Shown: positions 8,532 through 52,546 of the stretch, piece after piece
Layout: the number at the start of each line of letters is the position of its first letter
Position numbering within the stretch: position 1 is the first letter of the stretch
DNA from: Bacillota bacterium
Lineage (GTDB): Bacteria; Bacillota; Dethiobacteria; DTU022
Length of the DNA stretch: 64,000 nt
NCBI GenBank assembly: GCA_033549065.1
Contig: JAWSUE010000012.1
Span: forward strand, 5,222 to 69,221
Reading direction: 5' to 3'
Made by a program: the position numbers and the translations under genes
Notes under the pieces: generated by a model
The model's input: the letters and a program-made list of their open reading frames with translations, nothing else
Told to the model about the DNA's origin: nothing
Database searches by the model: none

Positions 8532-9998
8532 ATGGATAAAGATCAAAATAGAAGGAATGTCCAGCCGGTTAAATTTTCAAAAAAGGTGGACTGGCTGGAT
8601 CCAAATCAGGTTGCCACCATACATCAGGCTTCAGTGGATATATTAAGCAAGATCGGAATCAAGATGCCCCACCCAAAAGTTCAACAAATACTGGGTCAGG
8701 CAGGTGCAAGAACTAACAGCACAAGCGGAAAAGTATATATCCCCGAAAAGTTAATTGAAGAGGCCATAAAAAAGGCTCCACAGACTTTTACCCTGGCTGC
8801 CAGGAACCCGGTTAATGACCTGCCGGTTAATGGTGAGTTTGGATACCTTTCGTTAGATGGGAGCGGGCTGCAGGTAATAGACCTGACCAGTGGAGAACTG
8901 CGCAGGTCAACATTGAAGGATCTTGAGGAAGCAGTTACTGTTGCCGATTATTTGAAAGAGATTTCTTTTCTCTGGCCGGTTATCAGCGCCCAGGATCGTC
9001 CCAAGAAGAAACAGCCGCTTTATGAATTATACGCCCAGCTGGCCAATTCAACAAAACATGTCCAGGCGATGACTGCGGTTGATCCTGAAGCGGCAGAAGG
9101 TTCAATCAGAATTGCCAAAGCAGTTGCCGGAAGCTCCGCGGCTCTGCGAAACCGTCCGATAATCTCTAATTTCCAGTGCAGCATCAGTCCCCTTGCTTAC
9201 GATCCTGAAGGGCTGGAAGCAGCAATGATCTTTGCCGATGCCGGTATACCAACCGGTTTTTTAACGATGCAGATCGGCTGTTCAACAGCTCCGGCAACCC
9301 TGGCCGGCAGTCTGGCCCAGGCTAATGCTGAAATCCTGGCCGGGATTGTCTTCCTCCAAACATATAAACCAGGCTGCCCGACTTTTTACGGTTCATGTGC
9401 CACAGTAATGGAACTGCATTCCGGAGCAGTTTGCTGTGGAGGCCCCGAAGACTTTTTGCTGCAGGCAATGTCTGCCCAGATGGCGCGCTACTATAATCTG
9501 CCTTCGAATATCGGCACCTTTGCCACCGGTGCTAAAGCATCAAACTGGCATGCCGGAGTTGAAAATGCCCTTTCGGGGATGTCAAGCATAATGGCCGGTG
9601 CTGATATGATGTGCGGGGCAGGGTTACTGGCCGGAGCATTAATATTTTCCTTCGAGCAGCTTTTGATGGACTGTGAGATATTTGAAATTATCAGGCGTTC
9701 AACCGAAAAGATTATTGTCGATGAAAATACTTTGGCTCTGGAGACAATTGCCGCTGTGGGATCTGACGACCATTTCATGGTTGAACCGCATACCCTGAAG
9801 CATATGCGGGAACTCTGGCAGCCTGCAGTAATGAACCGCAGTCCTTATGGCAAATGGCAGACTGAAGGCTGTCGTGAAGCTGAAGAAAATGCCCGGGAAA
9901 AGGCCTGGTGGATTCTTGAAAATCACAAGCCTGATCAGCTTGACGATAAGCTTAAGGCTGAAATTATAAACATAATCGAAGATCATAGCCAGCACTAG
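8532..9998 (+). CDS. MttB-superfamily (trimethylamine methyltransferase family) methyltransferase, pyrrolysine-free paralog 1
   Basis: 488 aa with full-length MttB-family similarity and no in-frame amber codon. The ATG immediately follows the stop of the upstream gene, and a GAGGT SD is present. Confidence 0.85.
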   Translation: MDKDQNRRNVQPVKFSKKVDWLDPNQVATIHQASVDILSKIGIKMPHPKVQQILGQAGARTNSTSGKVYIPEKLIEEAIKKAPQTFTLAARNPVNDLPVNGEFGYLSLDGSGLQVIDLTSGELRRSTLKDLEEAVTVADYLKEISFLWPVISAQDRPKKKQPLYELYAQLANSTKHVQAMTAVDPEAAEGSIRIAKAVAGSSAALRNRPIISNFQCSISPLAYDPEGLEAAMIFADAGIPTGFLTMQIGCSTAPATLAGSLAQANAEILAGIVFLQTYKPGCPTFYGSCATVMELHSGAVCCGGPEDFLLQAMSAQMARYYNLPSNIGTFATGAKASNWHAGVENALSGMSSIMAGADMMCGAGLLAGALIFSFEQLLMDCEIFEIIRRSTEKIIVDENTLALETIAAVGSDDHFMVEPHTLKHMRELWQPAVMNRSPYGKWQTEGCREAEENAREKAWWILENHKPDQLDDKLKAEIINIIEDHSQH

Positions 9999-21257: not shown

Positions 21258-21301
21258 TCTAACCGCTCTTAAACCAAGTGGAGAAAGGAGAATTTGGGAA
21301 A

Positions 21302-22756
21302 ATGAAAAGTTGCTTTAAAGCACAGGGATCAACTTTCCTGCAGGTTCTCTCGGACGACCAGTGCCGGCGGTTGGTAGCAGCGGCGATGGAAGTTTTGGAA
21401 AGGACCGGAGTTACATATTTAGACGATGAAGCAGTTGACAGGATGAAAAAAGCAGGTTGCTATGTAGACGGTAAAAGGGTTCGGATACCTTTTAAGCTGG
21501 TTGAGAAAGCCCTGAACACTGTTCCGAGAAAGGTTTCACTCTGCAACAGCAGGACCGGTAAAAGGGTTATGGAGATGGAAGGCGGGAATGCTTATTTCGG
21601 AACCGGTTCCGATACTCCCAATTTTATTGATCCTTACACCCAGGAGAGAATTAAAGCAAGCAGGAAGACTGTTCAAATGGCCACCAAGGTCATCGATGCA
21701 CTTCCCAATCTTGATTTTGTAATGTCCCTGGGTATTGTCCAGGATGTTCACCAGCTGGTATACGATCGCTACCAGTTCGAAGCCATGGTCCTGAATACTT
21801 CCAAGCCGATCGTTATTACTGCGATCGATGAGCCAGGCTATTCAGATATCATCAAAATGTGCGAGTTGATAGCCGGCGGGGAAGAGGAATTGAGGAACCA
21901 CCCGTTTCTTACTCTTTATGCAGAGCCGATTTCACCCCTGCAGCACCCCAATGATTCAGCGCGCAAGCTGATGTTGGCAGCGAAGAAGGGACTACCTGTT
22001 GTATATACACCGTGTATCATGGCCGGCGGAACAGTACCGGCTACACTGGCCGGAGCCATGGCTAACGGTCTGGCCGAAAGCCTGAGCGGTTTGGTTCTTA
22101 ACCAGGTGACATCGGAGGGCAGCCCGTTCATCATGGGCGGCGTATTTACCGTTATGGATATGCAGACCACCATATTCTCATATGGTTCACCGGAATTTGA
22201 TCTGATGATGGCTGCTCTGGCAGATATTCATCATTATCTTGATCTTCCCATGTTCGGCACCTGCGGATGTACTGATGCAAAAGTTGTTGACGAACAGGCT
22301 TTGATTGAGGGTGCAATGTCAATTCTGCTTACAGCTCAGGCAGGAGCAAACCTGAACCATGATGTGGGATATATTGAGCATGGTAATACAGCATCGCTTG
22401 AATACCTGACAATCTGTGACGATTTAATTGGTATTGCCCGCAAGATAGTCAGCGGTATTGAGGTAAGCGACAAAACCCTGGCCCTTGATGTAATTGACAA
22501 AGTTGGCCCGGGCGGACACTTCCTCGGTGAGGAGCATACAATGAAGCACTTCAAGGAGCAGACCTGGTATCCCCGCTTGTTTGAGCGCCAGATCTATGAA
22601 AATTGGGCTGCCGACGGTTTTAAAACTCTCTTTGATAAAGCCAATGATAAAGTAATAGATATTCTCGAAAATTATGAACCTGAGCCTCTGCCGAAAGATG
22701 TGCAGCAGAAGATCAAGGATATCATTGCCGAAGCAGAATCTAAATTGAACAAGTAA
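21302..22756 (+). CDS. MttB-superfamily methyltransferase, pyrrolysine-free paralog 2
   Basis: Full-length MttB-family similarity with no amber codon. I prefer the ATG at 21302, 11 nt after GAGAAAGGAG, over the RBS-less GTG at 21278. Confidence 0.85.
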   Translation: MKSCFKAQGSTFLQVLSDDQCRRLVAAAMEVLERTGVTYLDDEAVDRMKKAGCYVDGKRVRIPFKLVEKALNTVPRKVSLCNSRTGKRVMEMEGGNAYFGTGSDTPNFIDPYTQERIKASRKTVQMATKVIDALPNLDFVMSLGIVQDVHQLVYDRYQFEAMVLNTSKPIVITAIDEPGYSDIIKMCELIAGGEEELRNHPFLTLYAEPISPLQHPNDSARKLMLAAKKGLPVVYTPCIMAGGTVPATLAGAMANGLAESLSGLVLNQVTSEGSPFIMGGVFTVMDMQTTIFSYGSPEFDLMMAALADIHHYLDLPMFGTCGCTDAKVVDEQALIEGAMSILLTAQAGANLNHDVGYIEHGNTASLEYLTICDDLIGIARKIVSGIEVSDKTLALDVIDKVGPGGHFLGEEHTMKHFKEQTWYPRLFERQIYENWAADGFKTLFDKANDKVIDILENYEPEPLPKDVQQKIKDIIAEAESKLNK

Positions 22757-31896: not shown

Positions 31897-32808
31897 TTAT
31901 TCAAGGCCATAACCCGGGAAAAAGAGGGTTTCTCCATTTACCTGGTAAGAATTGATCAGGTTTTGACCTTCATCTGACATCAAGAACTCAATATACATCA
32001 TTGCGTATTCATACTTGGCATGTGAATGCAACTCCGGATTAACAGCCATAACACCATATTGGTTAAAGAGGACCGGGTCGCCTTCCAGCACGATCACCAG
32101 ATCCAGAGTATCTTTCATGGCTACATAGGTGCCGCGGTCAGTCAGGGTATACCCGAGTGATTCATTGGCAACGTTCAGGGTATCACCCATACCTTGCCCG
32201 ATGGATAAATACCAGCTTTCACCGGTTGGATCAATACCTGCGCTATCCCAGAGTCGTAATTCCATTCTGTTAGTTCCCGAATCATCACCTCGTGAAACAA
32301 AGGTGTTACCGCTATCTTCTATTAAATTAAATGCTTCAACAGCAGTGCTCACAGCTTTGATCCCTGCGGGATCATCATCGGGGCCGACAAAAATAAAATC
32401 ATTGTACATAACATCGTAACGGTCAACAAATGCACCTTCGTCGACAAGCCTCAGTTCCGAAACCCGGTCATGAACCAGTAAAACATCTGCATCTCCGCGT
32501 GCTCCCGTTTCCAATGCTGCACCGGTTCCCTGGGAAACGACCTGTACTTCAATACCGGTTTGTTCAGTAAAAATAGGATTCAGAAAATCAAGCAGGCCCG
32601 AGTCGTAGGTGCTTGTGGTGGTTGCCAGGATTATGGTGTCGATGATTTCAACTTCCTCCGGGGTCTCCTCCGGGACTTCTTCCGGTTCTTCTTCGGGTTC
32701 TGCTTCCGGGGTTGTATCCTGGGCACAACCGGCTGTAAACATCAAGAGACCAAATACCAATGAAAATAAAACAAAGAATAGTAGTAATGAATTTTTTCGG
32801 TAAAGCAT
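31897..32808 (-). CDS. tupA: tungstate ABC transporter substrate-binding lipoprotein TupA
   Basis: A lipoprotein signal (LLMFTAGC) and the TupA TTTS anion-binding motif (ILATTTSTYDSGLLD). I prefer the ATG at 32808, which has an AGGAGG SD 7 nt upstream. Confidence 0.8.
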   Translation of the reverse strand: MLYRKNSLLLFFVLFSLVFGLLMFTAGCAQDTTPEAEPEEEPEEVPEETPEEVEIIDTIILATTTSTYDSGLLDFLNPIFTEQTGIEVQVVSQGTGAALETGARGDADVLLVHDRVSELRLVDEGAFVDRYDVMYNDFIFVGPDDDPAGIKAVSTAVEAFNLIEDSGNTFVSRGDDSGTNRMELRLWDSAGIDPTGESWYLSIGQGMGDTLNVANESLGYTLTDRGTYVAMKDTLDLVIVLEGDPVLFNQYGVMAVNPELHSHAKYEYAMMYIEFLMSDEGQNLINSYQVNGETLFFPGYGLE

Positions 32809-32974
32809 GTTTTTTCCTCCTGAATTTGATTTGCTATTACTTTTATTGTAGGACAAGAATTAATTTATATTACCCTTTCACCGGTCTGCAGCGGTTATTT
32901 GTTATACTGCCTCCTTTCCGGGTTGTATATTTTGTAATAAAGGTTGTGAACATGCTCTATCATTCAATGGTCTT

Positions 32975-33007: not shown

Positions 33008-33030
33008 GGCCTGACATAAAAGCATGATCA

Positions 33031-33132
33031 AACCTTCTTTCCGCACTGGGAGGCACCGTTGTTTCCAACTGTACCCTAACGTCCACTAGCCATGGTGATC
33101 ATATAAACACTTTAGGCTTGATGGATCGAAGG
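33031..33132 (-). promoter_or_regulatory. structured RNA element A, putative Moco/tungsten-cofactor (Moco RNA motif) riboswitch in the tupABC leader
   Basis: A ~100-nt element closed by a CCUUC/GAAGG helix. It is about 65% identical to element B, shares the UGCCUCCCA...GGAAAGAAGG segment, and is followed by a terminator. Confidence 0.5.
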
Positions 33133-33157
33133 TAAATATTTAGTTATATTCAAAATA

Positions 33158-33418: not shown

Positions 33419-33441
33419 ATTATACTCACTAAATATGAGTG

Positions 33442-33542
33442 AACCTTCTTTCCACAATGGGAGGCACAGCCGTTTCCAGCCATACCCTGCCGGCCATTTC
33501 TCGTGGCCTGAGCGAAGCGCTTTAGAGAAAATGGTTCGAAGG
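33442..33542 (-). promoter_or_regulatory. structured RNA element B, putative Moco/tungsten-cofactor riboswitch in the mop leader
   Basis: A paralogous copy of element A with a GGCCA-N7-UGGCC internal hairpin. The genomic context (mop, tupABC, W-type AOR) matches known Moco RNA motif associations. Confidence 0.5.
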
Positions 33543-33639
33543 AACTGCTTATTCGGTTTGCTTACATGTGCATTTTATAACAAAGAGAATTTGCAGTCAA
33601 GTCCTATAGAGGCTATGATAAGAATAATAATTCGAACAG

Positions 33640-35998: not shown

Positions 35999-36092
35999 GG
36001 GAGTAGTTAGCGGCCTGGTGGCGTTCCTGGACTTCAAATCCAGTGGCAGGGCAGCCCCCTGCGGTGGGTTCGATTCCCATCTACTCCCGCCA
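35999..36092 (+). tRNA. selC: tRNA-Sec (selenocysteine tRNA), anticodon UCA
   Basis: 94 nt with an 8-bp acceptor stem (GGAGTAGT/ACTACTCC), anticodon loop CUUCAAA, a long variable arm, a GGTTCGATTCC T-arm, discriminator G and an encoded CCA. Confidence 0.85.
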
Positions 36093-36093
36093 A

Positions 36094-36130
36094 ATCTTGA
36101 CGGGGTCAATTATTCAAGATCCGACCCCAT
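36094..36130 (+). terminator. possible terminator hairpins downstream of selC
   Basis: The ATCTTGA...TCAAGAT and GGGGTC...GACCCC inverted repeats are followed by a T-containing tail. Confidence 0.35.
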
Positions 36131-36198
36131 TCTTGCCAATTCACAATTGATATCCCGTGCTTATATTTTATAACTTAAATTTTAAGGGGTTTGATGAT

Positions 36199-36537
36199 AT
36201 GAAGGACAAATTAGTTGTTTTATGGATTTCTCGGGACGAAGAAGCTGCGATTAATATGGCATTTATGTACGCTAGAAATTCAAAATTAAAAGGCTGGTGG
36301 AACGAGGTTGAATTAATAATATGGGGCCCTTCGGCAAAGGTTGCTTCAGAAAATAAGAATATACAGGAAGAACTGAAAGAATTAAAAAATGCAGGAGTTA
36401 ATGTAAGGGCGTGTAAGGCCTGTGCTGATAAGTATCAAGTGAGTGAAAGATTAAGTGCCATGGATATTGAAGTGCTTTATATCGGATCGATTTTAACCGA
36501 TGAATTAAAATCAGGAACAAAGGTTATAACAGTATAA
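36199..36537 (+). CDS. DsrE/DsrF-like family small protein
   Basis: About 112 aa with a DsrE-like fold signature and a conserved Cys. I prefer the ATG at 36199, which follows an AAGGGG SD. Confidence 0.45.
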   Translation: MKDKLVVLWISRDEEAAINMAFMYARNSKLKGWWNEVELIIWGPSAKVASENKNIQEELKELKNAGVNVRACKACADKYQVSERLSAMDIEVLYIGSILTDELKSGTKVITV

Positions 36538-36609: not shown

Positions 36610-37140
36610 ATGAGGTGTATAGTGGAAATGGGTACAAAAGAAGAGGTTCTCGAGGGTTTATATCAAAAAGGCTTCATGTTTGAAAGGAATAATCATGGAT
36701 GTGGGCAGTGTACGGTAGCCGCAATCCAGGAATTTTTTGATGTAGATGATCTGATCTTTAAATCTGCCTCAGCTTATGCCGGTGGGATTGCATCGGTCAC
36801 AAACGGTTATTGCGGAGCTTTTAACGGAGGGGTTTTGATTCTTAACTATTTTTTTGGCAGAGAGAAAAAGGATTTTGAAAACCCTGATGCGATGGATAAG
36901 GCAAAAGAGATTGTTAATATCTACAAAGATCGATTTTTCCAGAAATTTGGCGGCTTCACATGTGGGCAGGTTCAGACTAAAATTATGGGGCGCTCATTCA
37001 ATACCGCAGATCCTGAAGAAAAAGAGCAATTTATCCAGGCGGGGGCATATGATGACAAGTGCACGAATGTTGTAGGAACCGCTGCTTCCATCGTAGGAGA
37101 AATTTTACTTGACAACAATATACCATTGAAAAAAGGGTAA
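36610..37140 (+). CDS. C_GCAxxG_C_C family putative redox protein
   Basis: A CGQCTVAA segment resembles the family's Cys motif. 176 aa; the start is uncertain. Confidence 0.45.
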   Translation: MRCIVEMGTKEEVLEGLYQKGFMFERNNHGCGQCTVAAIQEFFDVDDLIFKSASAYAGGIASVTNGYCGAFNGGVLILNYFFGREKKDFENPDAMDKAKEIVNIYKDRFFQKFGGFTCGQVQTKIMGRSFNTADPEEKEQFIQAGAYDDKCTNVVGTAASIVGEILLDNNIPLKKG

Positions 37141-46563: not shown

Positions 46564-46597
46564 TTGATTTATTCTAATATTATGATATAATCATAAT
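46564..46597 (+). promoter_or_regulatory. sigma-70 promoter (TTGATT-N16-TATAAT) overlapped by an 8-3-8 inverted repeat ATTATGAT-ATA-ATCATAAT, the putative ArsR-family operator
   Basis: The consensus -10 element is embedded in a near-perfect palindrome immediately upstream of the arsR-like gene. Confidence 0.5.
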
Positions 46598-46618
46598 ATG
46601 TGCAAAGGAGGTCTCCTG

Positions 46619-46912
46619 ATGGATATAACAGCAGAAATGTCTTTGATAAAAGAAAAGGCAAATTTATTGAAGGCACTTTCCAATCCTGTCCGACTCTGTA
46701 TAGTAAAGGAATTATTACACAGAGATACATGCAATGTTTCCAACATGCAAAATTGTATGCAGTTGTCGCAATCAACAGTATCTCAGCACCTGGGAAGGCT
46801 TAGAGATCTTGGTATTGTAGTGGGGGATCGGCGGGGAACAGAAGTATTTTACAGTGTGGCAAGTGAAGAAGCTGCTGCTGTTATCAGGGCTCTTTTCAAT
46901 ATATCAGAATAG
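46619..46912 (+). CDS. ArsR/SmtB family transcriptional regulator
   Basis: A winged HTH (SVSQHLGRLRDLGIV) with metal-sensing-type Cys residues. An AAGGAGG SD lies 7 nt upstream of the ATG at 46619. Confidence 0.8.
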   Translation: MDITAEMSLIKEKANLLKALSNPVRLCIVKELLHRDTCNVSNMQNCMQLSQSTVSQHLGRLRDLGIVVGDRRGTEVFYSVASEEAAAVIRALFNISE

Positions 46913-46926
46913 AGGAGGTTTTATCC

Positions 46927-47241
46927 ATGTTCACTGTAACGGATAAAGCAAAAGAAAAATTTGTTGAGTTTTTAAACGAAGAAGGCAAGAAAGATGCCTA
47001 TGTTCGCATCTATATAAGCGGTGTTGGCTGAGGCGGACCTAGGTACGGCCTGACTCTGGATGAGTCGGTTCAGGAAGAAAAAGATCTAGTTCATGAAACA
47101 GAAGAAGTTAAGTTTGTTTTTGAAAACGGAATTTCTGATTTCCTCAGTGGGAAATTGATCGACTATCATGATGGTCCACGAGGCGGTTTTTCTGTTACTG
47201 ATGGCAGCGGGCAAAGCGGATGTGGAGATTGCAGCTGCTAA
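46927..47241 (+). CDS. HesB/IscA-like selenoprotein (in-frame TGA at 47029..47031 read as selenocysteine)
   Basis: GGAGG is followed 8 nt later by an ATG. The product MFTVTDKAKEKFVEFLNEEGKKDAYVRIYISGVG-U-GGPRYGL...GQSGCGDCSC carries Sec at the position of the first conserved Cys of IscA/HesB proteins. A GACUC-UGGAU-GAGUC hairpin lies about 20 nt after the UGA. A selC gene is present in the window. Confidence 0.7.
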
Positions 47242-47267: not shown

Positions 47268-47390
47268 ATGGCTACTGCAGTTGGCGAGGTATATAAGTGT
47301 CAGGTATGCACCAATGTCGTAAAGGTTCTGGAAGATGGGGTAGGTACCCTGGTTTGTTGTGATGAGCCGATGGAATTGGTAGAAGAGTAG
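47268..47390 (+). CDS. desulforedoxin (Fe(Cys)4 rubredoxin-like protein)
   Basis: A 40-aa ORF (MATAVGEVYKCQVCTNVVKVLEDGVGTLVCCDEPMELVEE) that is near-colinear with the classical desulforedoxin CxxC...CC motif. A GGAGG SD is present. Confidence 0.75.
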   Translation: MATAVGEVYKCQVCTNVVKVLEDGVGTLVCCDEPMELVEE

Positions 47391-47425
47391 TCTTCAATAA
47401 GCATAAATTGATCTTTTAACTAATT

Positions 47426-47467
47426 GAGCCGGAGCTTTTTGAACAAAGTCCCGGCTCACTCTTTTTT
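47426..47467 (+). terminator. rho-independent terminator of the arsR-selenoprotein-desulforedoxin operon
   Basis: A GAGCCGG...CCGGCTC hairpin is followed by ACTCTTTTTT. Confidence 0.6.
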
Positions 47468-50791: not shown

Positions 50792-52546
50792 CTAAAGGTT
50801 CAATTCTGTTTTCTTGGCTTTGCTTATCCGGCCATTGTCTTCCCAACCGCGCAGTTTGTAATATTCAGAGAGCATTTTTTCGTATTCCTCTCGCGGCAGA
50901 AGTTTGCCTTCAGTTGCACCGGTGGTCAGTTCTTCTTTATATATGCGCTCGGGCAGGTAATCATCTTTACGCACGAAGCCTTCCCTTTCGTTGAAAAGGC
51001 GGGCTAGGTTATTAATCCGCTCTCCGATTTTGATCAGATCATCGGCAGAAATTTCCCTGTTCAGAAGTGAACTCAGAATTTCAGCCATTCGCTCGGTGCT
51101 GAGAGCCCAAAAATCACAGAATATAGCTGAGAATTTAACTGAATTAATTTCTTGCAGATCAATAACCAGTTTAGCCTTACCTTCGCTGGTAAAAGGATCA
51201 ATATCTCCGAATGCTTCCACAGCAGCCGGCCAGGCTCTCATGTGACAGGCTCCGCGGTCGGCAGTGCCGTAAGCCAGCCCCATTGACCATGATCCTCTCG
51301 GCTCGTAACCCGGTATTTCAAGGCCTTTTACCTGCATGGCAAAGTCAGAGCCTCCATACTTTTCTGCCATGGCCCTGACTCCCATGGCCAGATCAGCGCC
51401 AACGCCTTCTTTACGGGCAATTAATCCGGGCATTTCCAAATATCTTTCCACCTGGCCGAACCTGATGTCAAAGTCATGGATGCTCTTTTCAGTAAGTTCC
51501 ATGGCAAAGGCAACAGCGTTACCGGCCGATATTGTATCTAAACAGTGATCATCGCAAAGACGATTAAATTCCATTACTGCTTCCAGATCACCTATTCCGC
51601 AGTTGGATCCACAAAGCGCAAGTGTTTCATATTCCGGTCCCTCAACCCGGGTGTTACCTTTAACGACATAGTTGCTGCAGGCCAACGGGCAGGCGAAACA
51701 GGCTTTTTTGGCTTTAAGGAAACTTTTAACTGCTTCGGAATTTACACCTTCATAATCGTCAAAAGTACCTTCCTGAAAGTTGCGGGTAGGAAGGATCCCG
51801 GTTGACTGGCTTAAATCGACAATCATGGGGGTCCCGTCACTGTAAGCCCACATGTTATCATCGGTCATCGTATCTTCACGCTTTATTTTATTCATGGCAG
51901 CAGAAAATTTACGGGTATTGGGTATTTTAATCCCCTTGGTACCCCTGACAGAAATTGCTTTCAGGTTTTTACTGCCCATAACGGCGCCAATACCTCCGCG
52001 ACCGGCCTGCCGGTATAGTTCAGAACTGATGCAGGCCATGGGGATAAGATTTTCTCCGGCCTGTCCGATTGCCATGGTAACTACATCTCCCAGAGTATCG
52101 GCAATTATATGCTCTGTTTCATGAGCGCCTTTACCCCAGATCCCTGCGGCACTGCGCAGTTCAACTTTATCGTCTTCAATATAGAGATAAACCGGTATTT
52201 TAGATTTACCTTCAATGATGACAGCATCATAACCGGAGTATTTTATTTCGGCAGATATGTGACCGCCAATAGAACAGTCTAGAATTGTGCCTGTGGCCGG
52301 TGATTTAGCGGCGATAGCGAGCTTCCCCGAGTTGGGTATAATCGTACCCGTCATCGGTCCGGTCATCAAAATCAGTTTATTTTCTTCAGATAGAGGATCA
52401 ATACCCGGTTCCAGTTCTTCGTAGAGATATTTGATACTCAGCCCTTTGCCGCCAAGATAATCATTTGCCCACTGCTCATTCAACGATTCGGTTGTAGCTT
52501 TTCCGGTTGACAGATTAACTCTTAATACTTTTCCGGTATAGGCCAT
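50792..52546 (-). CDS. aldehyde:ferredoxin oxidoreductase (tungsten-containing AOR family)
   Basis: Full-length AOR family protein with the N-terminal AFOR_N domain (MAYTGKVLRVNLSTGK...) and the C-terminal domain. Confidence 0.9.
   Translation of the reverse strand: MAYTGKVLRVNLSTGKATTESLNEQWANDYLGGKGLSIKYLYEELEPGIDPLSEENKLILMTGPMTGTIIPNSGKLAIAAKSPATGTILDCSIGGHISAEIKYSGYDAVIIEGKSKIPVYLYIEDDKVELRSAAGIWGKGAHETEHIIADTLGDVVTMAIGQAGENLIPMACISSELYRQAGRGGIGAVMGSKNLKAISVRGTKGIKIPNTRKFSAAMNKIKREDTMTDDNMWAYSDGTPMIVDLSQSTGILPTRNFQEGTFDDYEGVNSEAVKSFLKAKKACFACPLACSNYVVKGNTRVEGPEYETLALCGSNCGIGDLEAVMEFNRLCDDHCLDTISAGNAVAFAMELTEKSIHDFDIRFGQVERYLEMPGLIARKEGVGADLAMGVRAMAEKYGGSDFAMQVKGLEIPGYEPRGSWSMGLAYGTADRGACHMRAWPAAVEAFGDIDPFTSEGKAKLVIDLQEINSVKFSAIFCDFWALSTERMAEILSSLLNREISADDLIKIGERINNLARLFNEREGFVRKDDYLPERIYKEELTTGATEGKLLPREEYEKMLSEYYKLRGWEDNGRISKAKKTELNL

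Follow-up and report, generated by a model that had tools for sequence, protein, structure and literature searches.

Does an in-frame TGA in a small reading frame that annotation has passed over mark a stop, an error or a codon for selenocysteine (Sec, U)? The question is raised by positions 46927 to 47241 of a 64,000-nucleotide stretch of DNA from a Bacillota bacterium (GenBank assembly GCA_033549065.1, contig JAWSUE010000012.1, positions 5,222 to 69,221 of the forward strand), which we call the window and in which a sequence-only reading had proposed a HesB/IscA-like selenoprotein. Comparison with related loci makes it very probable that this is a genuine selenoprotein gene, dependent on a selenocysteine insertion sequence (SECIS) for the decoding of its UGA. 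That the product carries Fe or an Fe-S cluster by means of a selenolate ligand, as analogy with its relatives suggests, has roughly an even chance.

A conserved UGA codon and the hairpin behind it

The frame runs through 104 sense codons to a TAA at 47239-47241 and is interrupted once, at codon 35, by the TGA at 47029-47031; the open reading frame (ORF) upstream closes with a TAG at 46910-46912. The GGAGG sequence, the ATG 8 nt further on, the 104-codon frame and the TGA that the sequence-only reading described are all present in the DNA. The features on which the argument rests are the following:

46914 to 46918 (+): Shine-Dalgarno sequence GGAGG, with an 8-nt spacer to the ATG at 46927 (sequence reading)
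46927 to 47241 (+): coding sequence of a putative HesB/IscA-like selenoprotein of 104 aa, with U35 and a C99-x2-C102-x-C104 tail (translation, family matches, 69 loci, fold of a homologue)
47029 to 47031 (+): predicted Sec codon UGA (codon 35), TGA in 69 of 69 loci, in the column of the first Cys ligand of IscA/ErpA
47050 to 47068 (+): candidate bacterial SECIS (bSECIS) hairpin CUGACUC-UGGAU-GAGUCGG, 7 bp, with a 5-nt loop and an invariant GG (fold, conserved pairing, frozen synonymous sites)
35999 to 36092 (+): tRNA-Sec gene (selC), anticodon UCA (Rfam RF01852, 72.3 bits against a gathering threshold of 47; ARAGORN tRNA-SeC (tca))

In translation the product starts with MFTVTDKAKEKF and leads on to RIYISGVG-U-GGPRYGL...GQSGCGDCSC, its full form being MFTVTDKAKEKFVEFLNEEGKKDAYVRIYISGVG-U-GGPRYGLTLDESVQ...GQSGCGDCSC. 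A mechanical ORF listing gives just a 34-aa stub (46927-47031). The flanking ArsR and desulforedoxin proteins are found exactly in GenBank under the consecutive accessions MDW7740245.1 and MDW7740246.1, so that no protein is recorded between them, and the IMG/ENA entry at the locus is the 34-aa N-terminal stub only, named 'Fe-S cluster assembly iron-binding protein IscA'; the earlier claim that the gene is unannotated is thus borne out. An exact look-up in the protein collection retrieved the 34-aa stub, and the full-length version with Trp (W) at the interrupted codon was absent from it.

A protein search with the window product, U being replaced by C in the query, returned eight homologues (P0001-P0008), of which seven share 63-71% identity with it and the eighth 40%. 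Every one of them is recorded with Trp at the Sec column and was called on a contig of about 0.6-2 kb, and the DNA behind them has TGA at this column. A scan of one genome per species added 64 further loci, with tblastn matches spanning residues 1-104; the majority are metagenome-assembled genomes (MAGs) of soda-lake sediments and anaerobic digesters that bear the label Syntrophomonadaceae or Bacillota; a few are labelled otherwise, and a single isolate, Acidaminobacter sp. JC074 (L066), is among them. The window, four encoding contigs and the 64 scanned loci make up a set of 69, at about 29-70% identity, in which the Sec codon is TGA in every locus and TGG, TGT or TGC in none. Evidently, the public 'W' is a TGA mis-called under a code in which TGA means Trp. 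Such false 'W' residues are systematic in public databases, as is read-through past true TGA stops, for example in P0002. Among the best 150 matches of a profile search of 1.8 billion representatives, the Sec column holds Cys in 97 and 'W' in 43; judging from the 69 loci with readable DNA, the 43 are presumably mis-called TGA codons as well. The family forms a classical Sec/Cys pair.

The reading frame beyond the TGA carries the marks of a translated sequence. The Gly-Gly-Pro directly after it is invariant while its third codon positions vary freely (1.7-1.96 bits of entropy), which indicates that selection acts on the protein. Since the first in-frame ATG, GTG or TTG 3' of the TGA is codon 76, the conserved residues 36-75 are not explicable by an internal start. 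These patterns indicate that translation runs on past the UGA at 47029 to the TAA at 47239.

The hairpin begins 18 nt after the A of the UGA, its loop lies at a spacing of 25 nt from the UGA, and the isolated element (47050-47068) has a minimum free energy (MFE) of -9.0 kcal/mol. The published description of bSECIS elements asks for a loop of 3-9 nt, an upper stem of 4-16 bp, a UGA-loop distance of 16-37 nt, a G in one of the first two loop positions and an MFE of -7.5 kcal/mol or lower (PMC13188914, Fig. 2), and the window hairpin, with 7 bp, the loop UGGAU, 25 nt and -9.0 kcal/mol, lies within all of these limits. Pairing holds in 95.7% of the stem cells across 67 distinct sequences and drops to 17-43% in controls in which the 3' partners are displaced by 1-3 columns; the loop is UGGAN throughout. 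The codons that build the hairpin are fixed at their synonymous sites (Thr ACT in 64 of 64, Leu CTG in 66 of 66, Glu GAG in 66 of 66), whereas the remaining Glu codons of the same genes favour GAA by 44:3 and flanking invariant residues vary freely at synonymous positions. We regard this freezing of synonymous sites as stronger evidence for a SECIS than covariation, where stem pair 24-38 is GC in 63 sequences and AU in 4, a double change tied to a Ser-to-Leu replacement, and another pair shifts from A-U to G-U in 3 sequences.

As a control, the equivalent stretch was folded in Cys-type relatives from metagenomes. The median local MFE was -10.6 for the TGA type (n = 72) and -4.7 for the TGT/TGC type (n = 37), and values of -7.5 or lower were reached by 93% and 16%, respectively; this Mann-Whitney comparison ignores phylogeny and is indicative only. 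A separate Sec subclade has another hairpin sequence, GGUCUA-GGUC-UAGACC, with the same architecture. The proposal that the hairpin downstream of the UGA is consistent with a bacterial SECIS thus gains from the published limits, the synonymous freezing and one compensatory pair, and the comparisons support the view that the 47050-47068 element behaves as a SECIS.

Metagenome loci also contain tandem paralogues, in which a Cys-type (TGC/TGT) HesB/IscA gene is followed by a Sec-type (TGA) copy about 450-600 nt downstream:

L070, 1606 and 2213; L071, 1606 and 2061; L072, 1606 and 2055; L078 and L079, 1606 and 2069; L085, 1558 and 2114: tandem Cys/Sec pairs

The Sec copies in L070-L079 use the hairpin GGUCUA-GGUC-UAGACC with the loop GGUC. 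At position 568 of L095, a Cys-type (TGT) homologue still has the Sec-clade hairpin (GGCUCUGGAUGAGUC, -7.3 kcal/mol), which looks like a fossil SECIS from a recent Sec-to-Cys conversion, comparable to those of other HesB-like genes (PMC1794560).

The window also holds a decoder, as selC sits 11 kb upstream of the gene. In the mechanism that we propose, the frame at 46927-47241 would encode a 104-residue homologue of the A-type (IscA/HesB/ErpA-like) carriers, with U35 as the first of the three ligand Cys positions. The hairpin at 47050-47068, 25 nt past the UGA within the coding sequence, would present its GG apical loop, and this SECIS would recruit SelB carrying Sec-tRNA(Sec), so that the UGA at 47029 would be recoded by the standard bacterial route; the tRNA gene at 35999-36092 would supply the decoder, and translation would proceed to the TAA at 47239.

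Two ORFs near selC deserve mention. The 126-aa ORF at 36157-36537 (+), 3' of the tRNA gene, has a weak match to the YedF C-terminal region (TIGR03527, 30.9 bits, under the cut-off), and the ORF at 36610-37140 (+) belongs to the C-GCAxxG-C-C family '(seleno)protein' (TIGR01909, 54.1 bits, over the cut-off), here with Cys and no break in the frame; the two may make the surroundings of selC a small neighbourhood of selenium-related genes. A window-wide scan for further TGA-joined ORF pairs gave 35 candidates, most of them inside longer ORFs of other frames; none was convincing, and the pair at 36043-36537 overlaps the tRNA-Sec gene.

Family, fold and gene cassette

With U again replaced by C, the product scores as follows against curated models:

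NF038090 IscA_HesB_Se: 65.4 bits against a cut-off of 85; best match, end to end (residues 1-104 to profile positions 1-101 of 101)
ErpA (NF010147): 59.7 bits against a cut-off of 117
TIGR00049: 56.0 bits against a cut-off of 58.8, just missed
TIGR01911 HesB_rel_seleno: 48.3 bits (46.3 with X) against a cut-off of 66.35, over residues 3-76 only
Pfam PF01521: 29.2 bits against a gathering threshold of 26.3, passed

The sequence-only reading had pointed to the TIGR01911-type proteins for comparison, a membership that the alignment (48.3 bits against 66.35) does not uphold; NF038090 fits better, also under its cut-off. The relatives behave alike: all ten Sec-type sequences tested (W changed to C) fall under the NF038090 cut-off, at 50.3-75.3 bits, and under that of TIGR01911 too, and close homologues (W changed to C) score 59.3-70.8 bits on TIGR00049. 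By these scores the window protein is a divergent relative, formally a member of neither TIGR01911 nor NF038090. We conclude from the conserved frame that 46927-47241 is a real gene overlooked by annotation, and the low scores against both curated Sec-HesB models may be the reason why it went uncalled.

The Sec motif reads U-G-G-P in the window and U-[GS]-G-P in related loci. The ligand pattern C-X(n)-C-X-C recurs as U35 followed by C102-S-C104, with C99 in addition; close homologues never vary at C99 or C104. A PDB search with a profile built from the homologues picks up HI1723 (2apn), Aq_1857 (1nwb) and E. coli IscA (1s98, 1r94), and in the alignments to 2apn and 1nwb the Cys of the GGGCSG ligand loop occupies the Sec column. 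The claim that Sec replaces the first conserved Cys of HesB/IscA therefore stands, through this ligand and through the Cys found at the column in 97 of the best 150 representatives. The AlphaFold model of P0001, a homologue 70% identical to the window protein, has a mean pLDDT of 80, and Foldseek places it with 1s98, 1r94, 2apn, 1nwb, 1x0g and 2d2a (TM 0.66-0.76, probability 1.00; TM 0.71-0.76 against IscA). An IscA fold is accordingly predicted for the window product. By homology, it would probably dimerise and bind iron or an Fe-S cluster through U35 and C99/C102/C104.

The gene lies between two others on the same strand, within these surroundings:

46564 to 46591 (+): putative sigma-70-like promoter TTGATT-16 nt-TATAAT, with TG (pattern match, 10/12 in a consensus scan)
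46577 to 46599 (+): perfect 10-nt inverted repeat ATATTATGAT-ATA-ATCATAATAT over the -10 box, a candidate ArsR operator
46619 to 46912 (+): ArsR/SmtB-family helix-turn-helix regulator, 97 aa from an ATG behind GGAGG (NF033788; Pfam HTH_20, HTH_5)
47268 to 47390 (+): desulforedoxin, 40 aa, Fe(Cys)4 domain, with its own GGAGG (PF06397, 61.1 bits; TIGR00319, 59.1 bits)
47425 to 47467 (+): terminator-like hairpin GAGCCGG...CCGGCUC with a U-run, 3' of the desulforedoxin gene (sequence reading)

The mechanical ORF of arsR begins at 46598, the GenBank protein MDW7740245.1 has 97 aa, and the regulator scores 77.4 bits on NF033788 HTH_metalloreg (cut-off 55). Among the related loci, an ArsR gene lies directly upstream of the Sec gene in 41 and a desulforedoxin gene directly downstream in 37. 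The genes further out (DUF6125, amylase, MatE, saccharopine dehydrogenase, SSF symporter) differ from locus to locus, which suggests that within the core clade the three genes work as one unit; the surroundings are different again in more distant Sec-type loci. AT-rich palindromes of the ATATTATGAT/ATAATAATAT type occupy the same relative place 5' of arsR in many close-clade loci. At the other end, the segment 47396-47480 folds at -21.6 kcal/mol, and the terminator within it was unseen by the consensus scan because of its long loop. Most likely, arsR, hesB(Sec) and the desulforedoxin gene constitute an ArsR-autorepressed, metal- or redox-inducible operon, in which the palindrome-overlapped promoter would drive all three genes. 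No published link between a HesB-like selenoprotein and desulforedoxin or ArsR was found in the searchable literature.

Elsewhere in the window, genes for MttB-superfamily methyltransferases lie at 21278-22756 (+) and 8532-9998 (+). The former has no in-frame TAG and scores 422 bits on TIGR02369, under the 525 cut-off for pyrrolysine (Pyl) enzymes; the Rfam PYLIS_3 match at 22268-22367 falls within this ORF, whose frame is unbroken, and is thus probably due to a similar coding sequence, not to the use of pyrrolysine. Tandem Moco/Tuco riboswitch aptamers (33018-33143 and 33429-33553, both on the minus strand; 65.8 and 61.7 bits in Rfam) precede the gene for a TupA-like tungstate-binding protein at 31897-32856 (-), and a tungsten-type aldehyde:ferredoxin oxidoreductase is encoded at 50792-52546 (-).

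Weighing the readings

Several points count against a SECIS-dependent selenoprotein that carries Fe or Fe-S. (i) Most hairpin pairs are invariant and hence silent on covariation, and the sole clear compensatory pair may represent a single evolutionary event, which would make the covariation support modest. (ii) The 62 nt after the UGA fold unexceptionally in comparison with shuffled sequences (z = -0.32); hairpin stability alone is thus no evidence, and the case is decided by comparison between loci. (iii) Rfam at gathering thresholds gives nothing at the 46927-47241 locus; we do not count this missing SECIS match against the selenoprotein claim itself. (iv) A scan of 20 larger ORFs of the window, which was not exhaustive, turned up neither selA nor selB nor selD. 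(v) The window protein lies under the curated cut-offs of NF038090, TIGR01911 and TIGR00049. (vi) In the P0001 model the tail, residues 95-104, has a pLDDT below 50, and the proximity of U35 to the C-terminal Cys residues is conjectural. (vii) The function of HesB-like selenoproteins is unassigned even where Sec insertion has been demonstrated (PMC11097638).

The last two points bear on function, and it is here that an alternative survives best. While fully compatible with recoding, a Sec-containing protein of the IscA fold need not be an Fe-S carrier: it could act in thiol/selenol redox chemistry, in persulfide or selenium handling, as a chaperone for iron only or another metal, or as a DsrR-like regulator working with desulforedoxin under ArsR control. 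Taken jointly, these roles are a serious if tentative possibility, at appreciably less than an even chance. The disruption mutant of the HesB-like selenoprotein of Methanococcus maripaludis, for which no function has been assigned, shows no nitrogen-fixation defect (PMC11097638), and reviews hold most Sec residues to be redox-active (PMC13188914). DsrR (2k4z), another protein of the IscA fold, turns up as a structural neighbour; the tail carries CxxCxC where CxC is canonical; and the gene is grouped with those of a metalloregulator and an Fe(Cys)4 protein, not with isc or suf genes. Against such roles, the position of Sec coincides exactly with that of the first cluster ligand in IscA/ErpA, the Cys ligands of the tail persist, and the best matches in sequence and fold are bona fide A-type carriers, including the [2Fe-2S]-bound IscA 1x0g.

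The readings that deny Sec insertion fare far worse. A Trp (or Gly) reading of the UGA, by an alternative code or by SECIS-independent read-through, is very improbable, even though the records of W in 8 of 8 database homologues and in 43 of the best 150 representatives would seem to favour it. These calls stem from short contigs (about 0.6-2 kb), on which a metagenome gene caller may settle on a model with TGA as Trp, and the DNA at the site is TGA, never TGG. As TGA closes 7 of the 46 long ORFs in the window, it is an ordinary stop there, which excludes a reassigned code; in locus L002, the true stop of the homologue P0002 is itself TGA, followed by TAA. Moreover, the site aligns to a metal-ligand Cys and to no aromatic position, and a tRNA-Sec gene is present.

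We consider it just as improbable that translation stops at 47029 to yield a 34-aa peptide, the hairpin being an attenuator or RNA-stability element and the rest untranslated or separately translated. Nucleotide conservation extends beyond the minimal stem (23 of 54 columns are invariant), and this could fit another RNA element; however, over residues 36-104 the protein is conserved while synonymous sites vary, this part supplies the Cys ligands of the tail and the remainder of the IscA fold, an in-frame start before codon 76 is absent, and the Cys-type paralogues are single uninterrupted ORFs. Least probable of all, a nonsense mutation or a sequencing or assembly error that turned a Cys- or Trp-containing IscA gene into a pseudogene would be compatible with the single sequence alone, with ORF finding that stops at 47031 and with the 34-aa IMG stub, but it is excluded by the identical TGA codon that 69 of 69 independent loci, drawn from many MAGs and metagenomes, retain; each of the 69 also keeps an intact frame 3' of the TGA, with purifying selection acting on it, and the related loci, 29-70% identical to the window, are not copies of one faulty assembly.

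Place among HesB-like selenoproteins and A-type carriers

HesB-like selenoproteins have been known since the mid-2000s. A 2006 survey counted 11 in bacteria, including Clostridia, and described Sec-to-Cys conversions that leave SECIS-like remnants (PMC1794560); the HesB-like selenoprotein of M. maripaludis was found by mutagenesis and 75Se labelling, its role being unclear (PMC11097638); and a 2026 review lists the family under TIGR01911 with the motif UxGP (PMC13188914, Table 1). The window gene appears to be a divergent addition to this family and no new kind of selenoprotein, so current understanding is not overturned, and the rescue of its annotation would not surprise a selenoprotein specialist. 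A bolder view makes it the first representative of a separate clade of Sec-ligand A-type carriers that is widespread and systematically unannotated, counts at least 69 loci and, in its core, is tied to an ArsR-autorepressed three-gene module with desulforedoxin; we hold this for rather doubtful. Such a clade would consist mainly of Syntrophomonadaceae-like Bacillota from soda-lake sediments and anaerobic digesters, with proteins that score under both Sec-HesB models, and its module would be a dedicated inducible unit of iron or Fe-S handling and repair, based on the joint action of a selenolate ligand and a one-iron redox protein.

The locus matters in several respects. Genes of this clade are mishandled in three ways, being dropped (GenBank), truncated (the 34 aa of IMG) or mistranslated with Trp (short contigs), and such errors skew selenoproteome counts and seed spurious 'W' residues in protein databases. 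The ArsR-HesB(Sec)-desulforedoxin operon provides a testable context: which signal derepresses it, and is desulforedoxin the redox partner? The tandem Cys/Sec paralogues and the fossil SECIS of L095 are natural experiments in Sec/Cys exchange at a metal ligand.

Compared with the HesB-like selenoproteins of TIGR01911, the product shares a length of about 100 aa, the IscA/HesB fold, Sec at the first Cys position, U-x-G-P, a bSECIS within the ORF, common Cys homologues and an occurrence in anaerobes that include Clostridia/Bacillota. It differs in its score on that model (48.3 against 66.35 bits, with only residues 3-76 aligned), in retaining the Cys-rich tail CGDCSC, and in belonging to a clade mostly of Syntrophomonadaceae-type MAGs, set in an ArsR-HesB-desulforedoxin cassette. 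NF038090 gives the end-to-end alignment and the best curated score, and yet the 65.4 bits stay under its cut-off of 85.

The likeness to the hairpin of the E. coli fdhF type (the bSECISearch consensus, PMC13188914) lies in its position within the ORF 3' of the UGA, the small GG loop, the spacing and the MFE; its primary sequence is different, no bulged U was identified, and SelB binding is here a prediction. With the A-type carriers IscA, SufA and ErpA (1s98, 1r94, 1x0g, 2d2a, 2apn), the protein shares the fold of its modelled homologue, a passing score on PF01521 and the arrangement of one ligand in the GxGxxG loop and the others in the C-terminal tail. Unlike these carriers, it would have Sec as its first ligand, it has C-x2-C-x-C in place of C-x-C, and its gene lies outside isc, suf and nif clusters.

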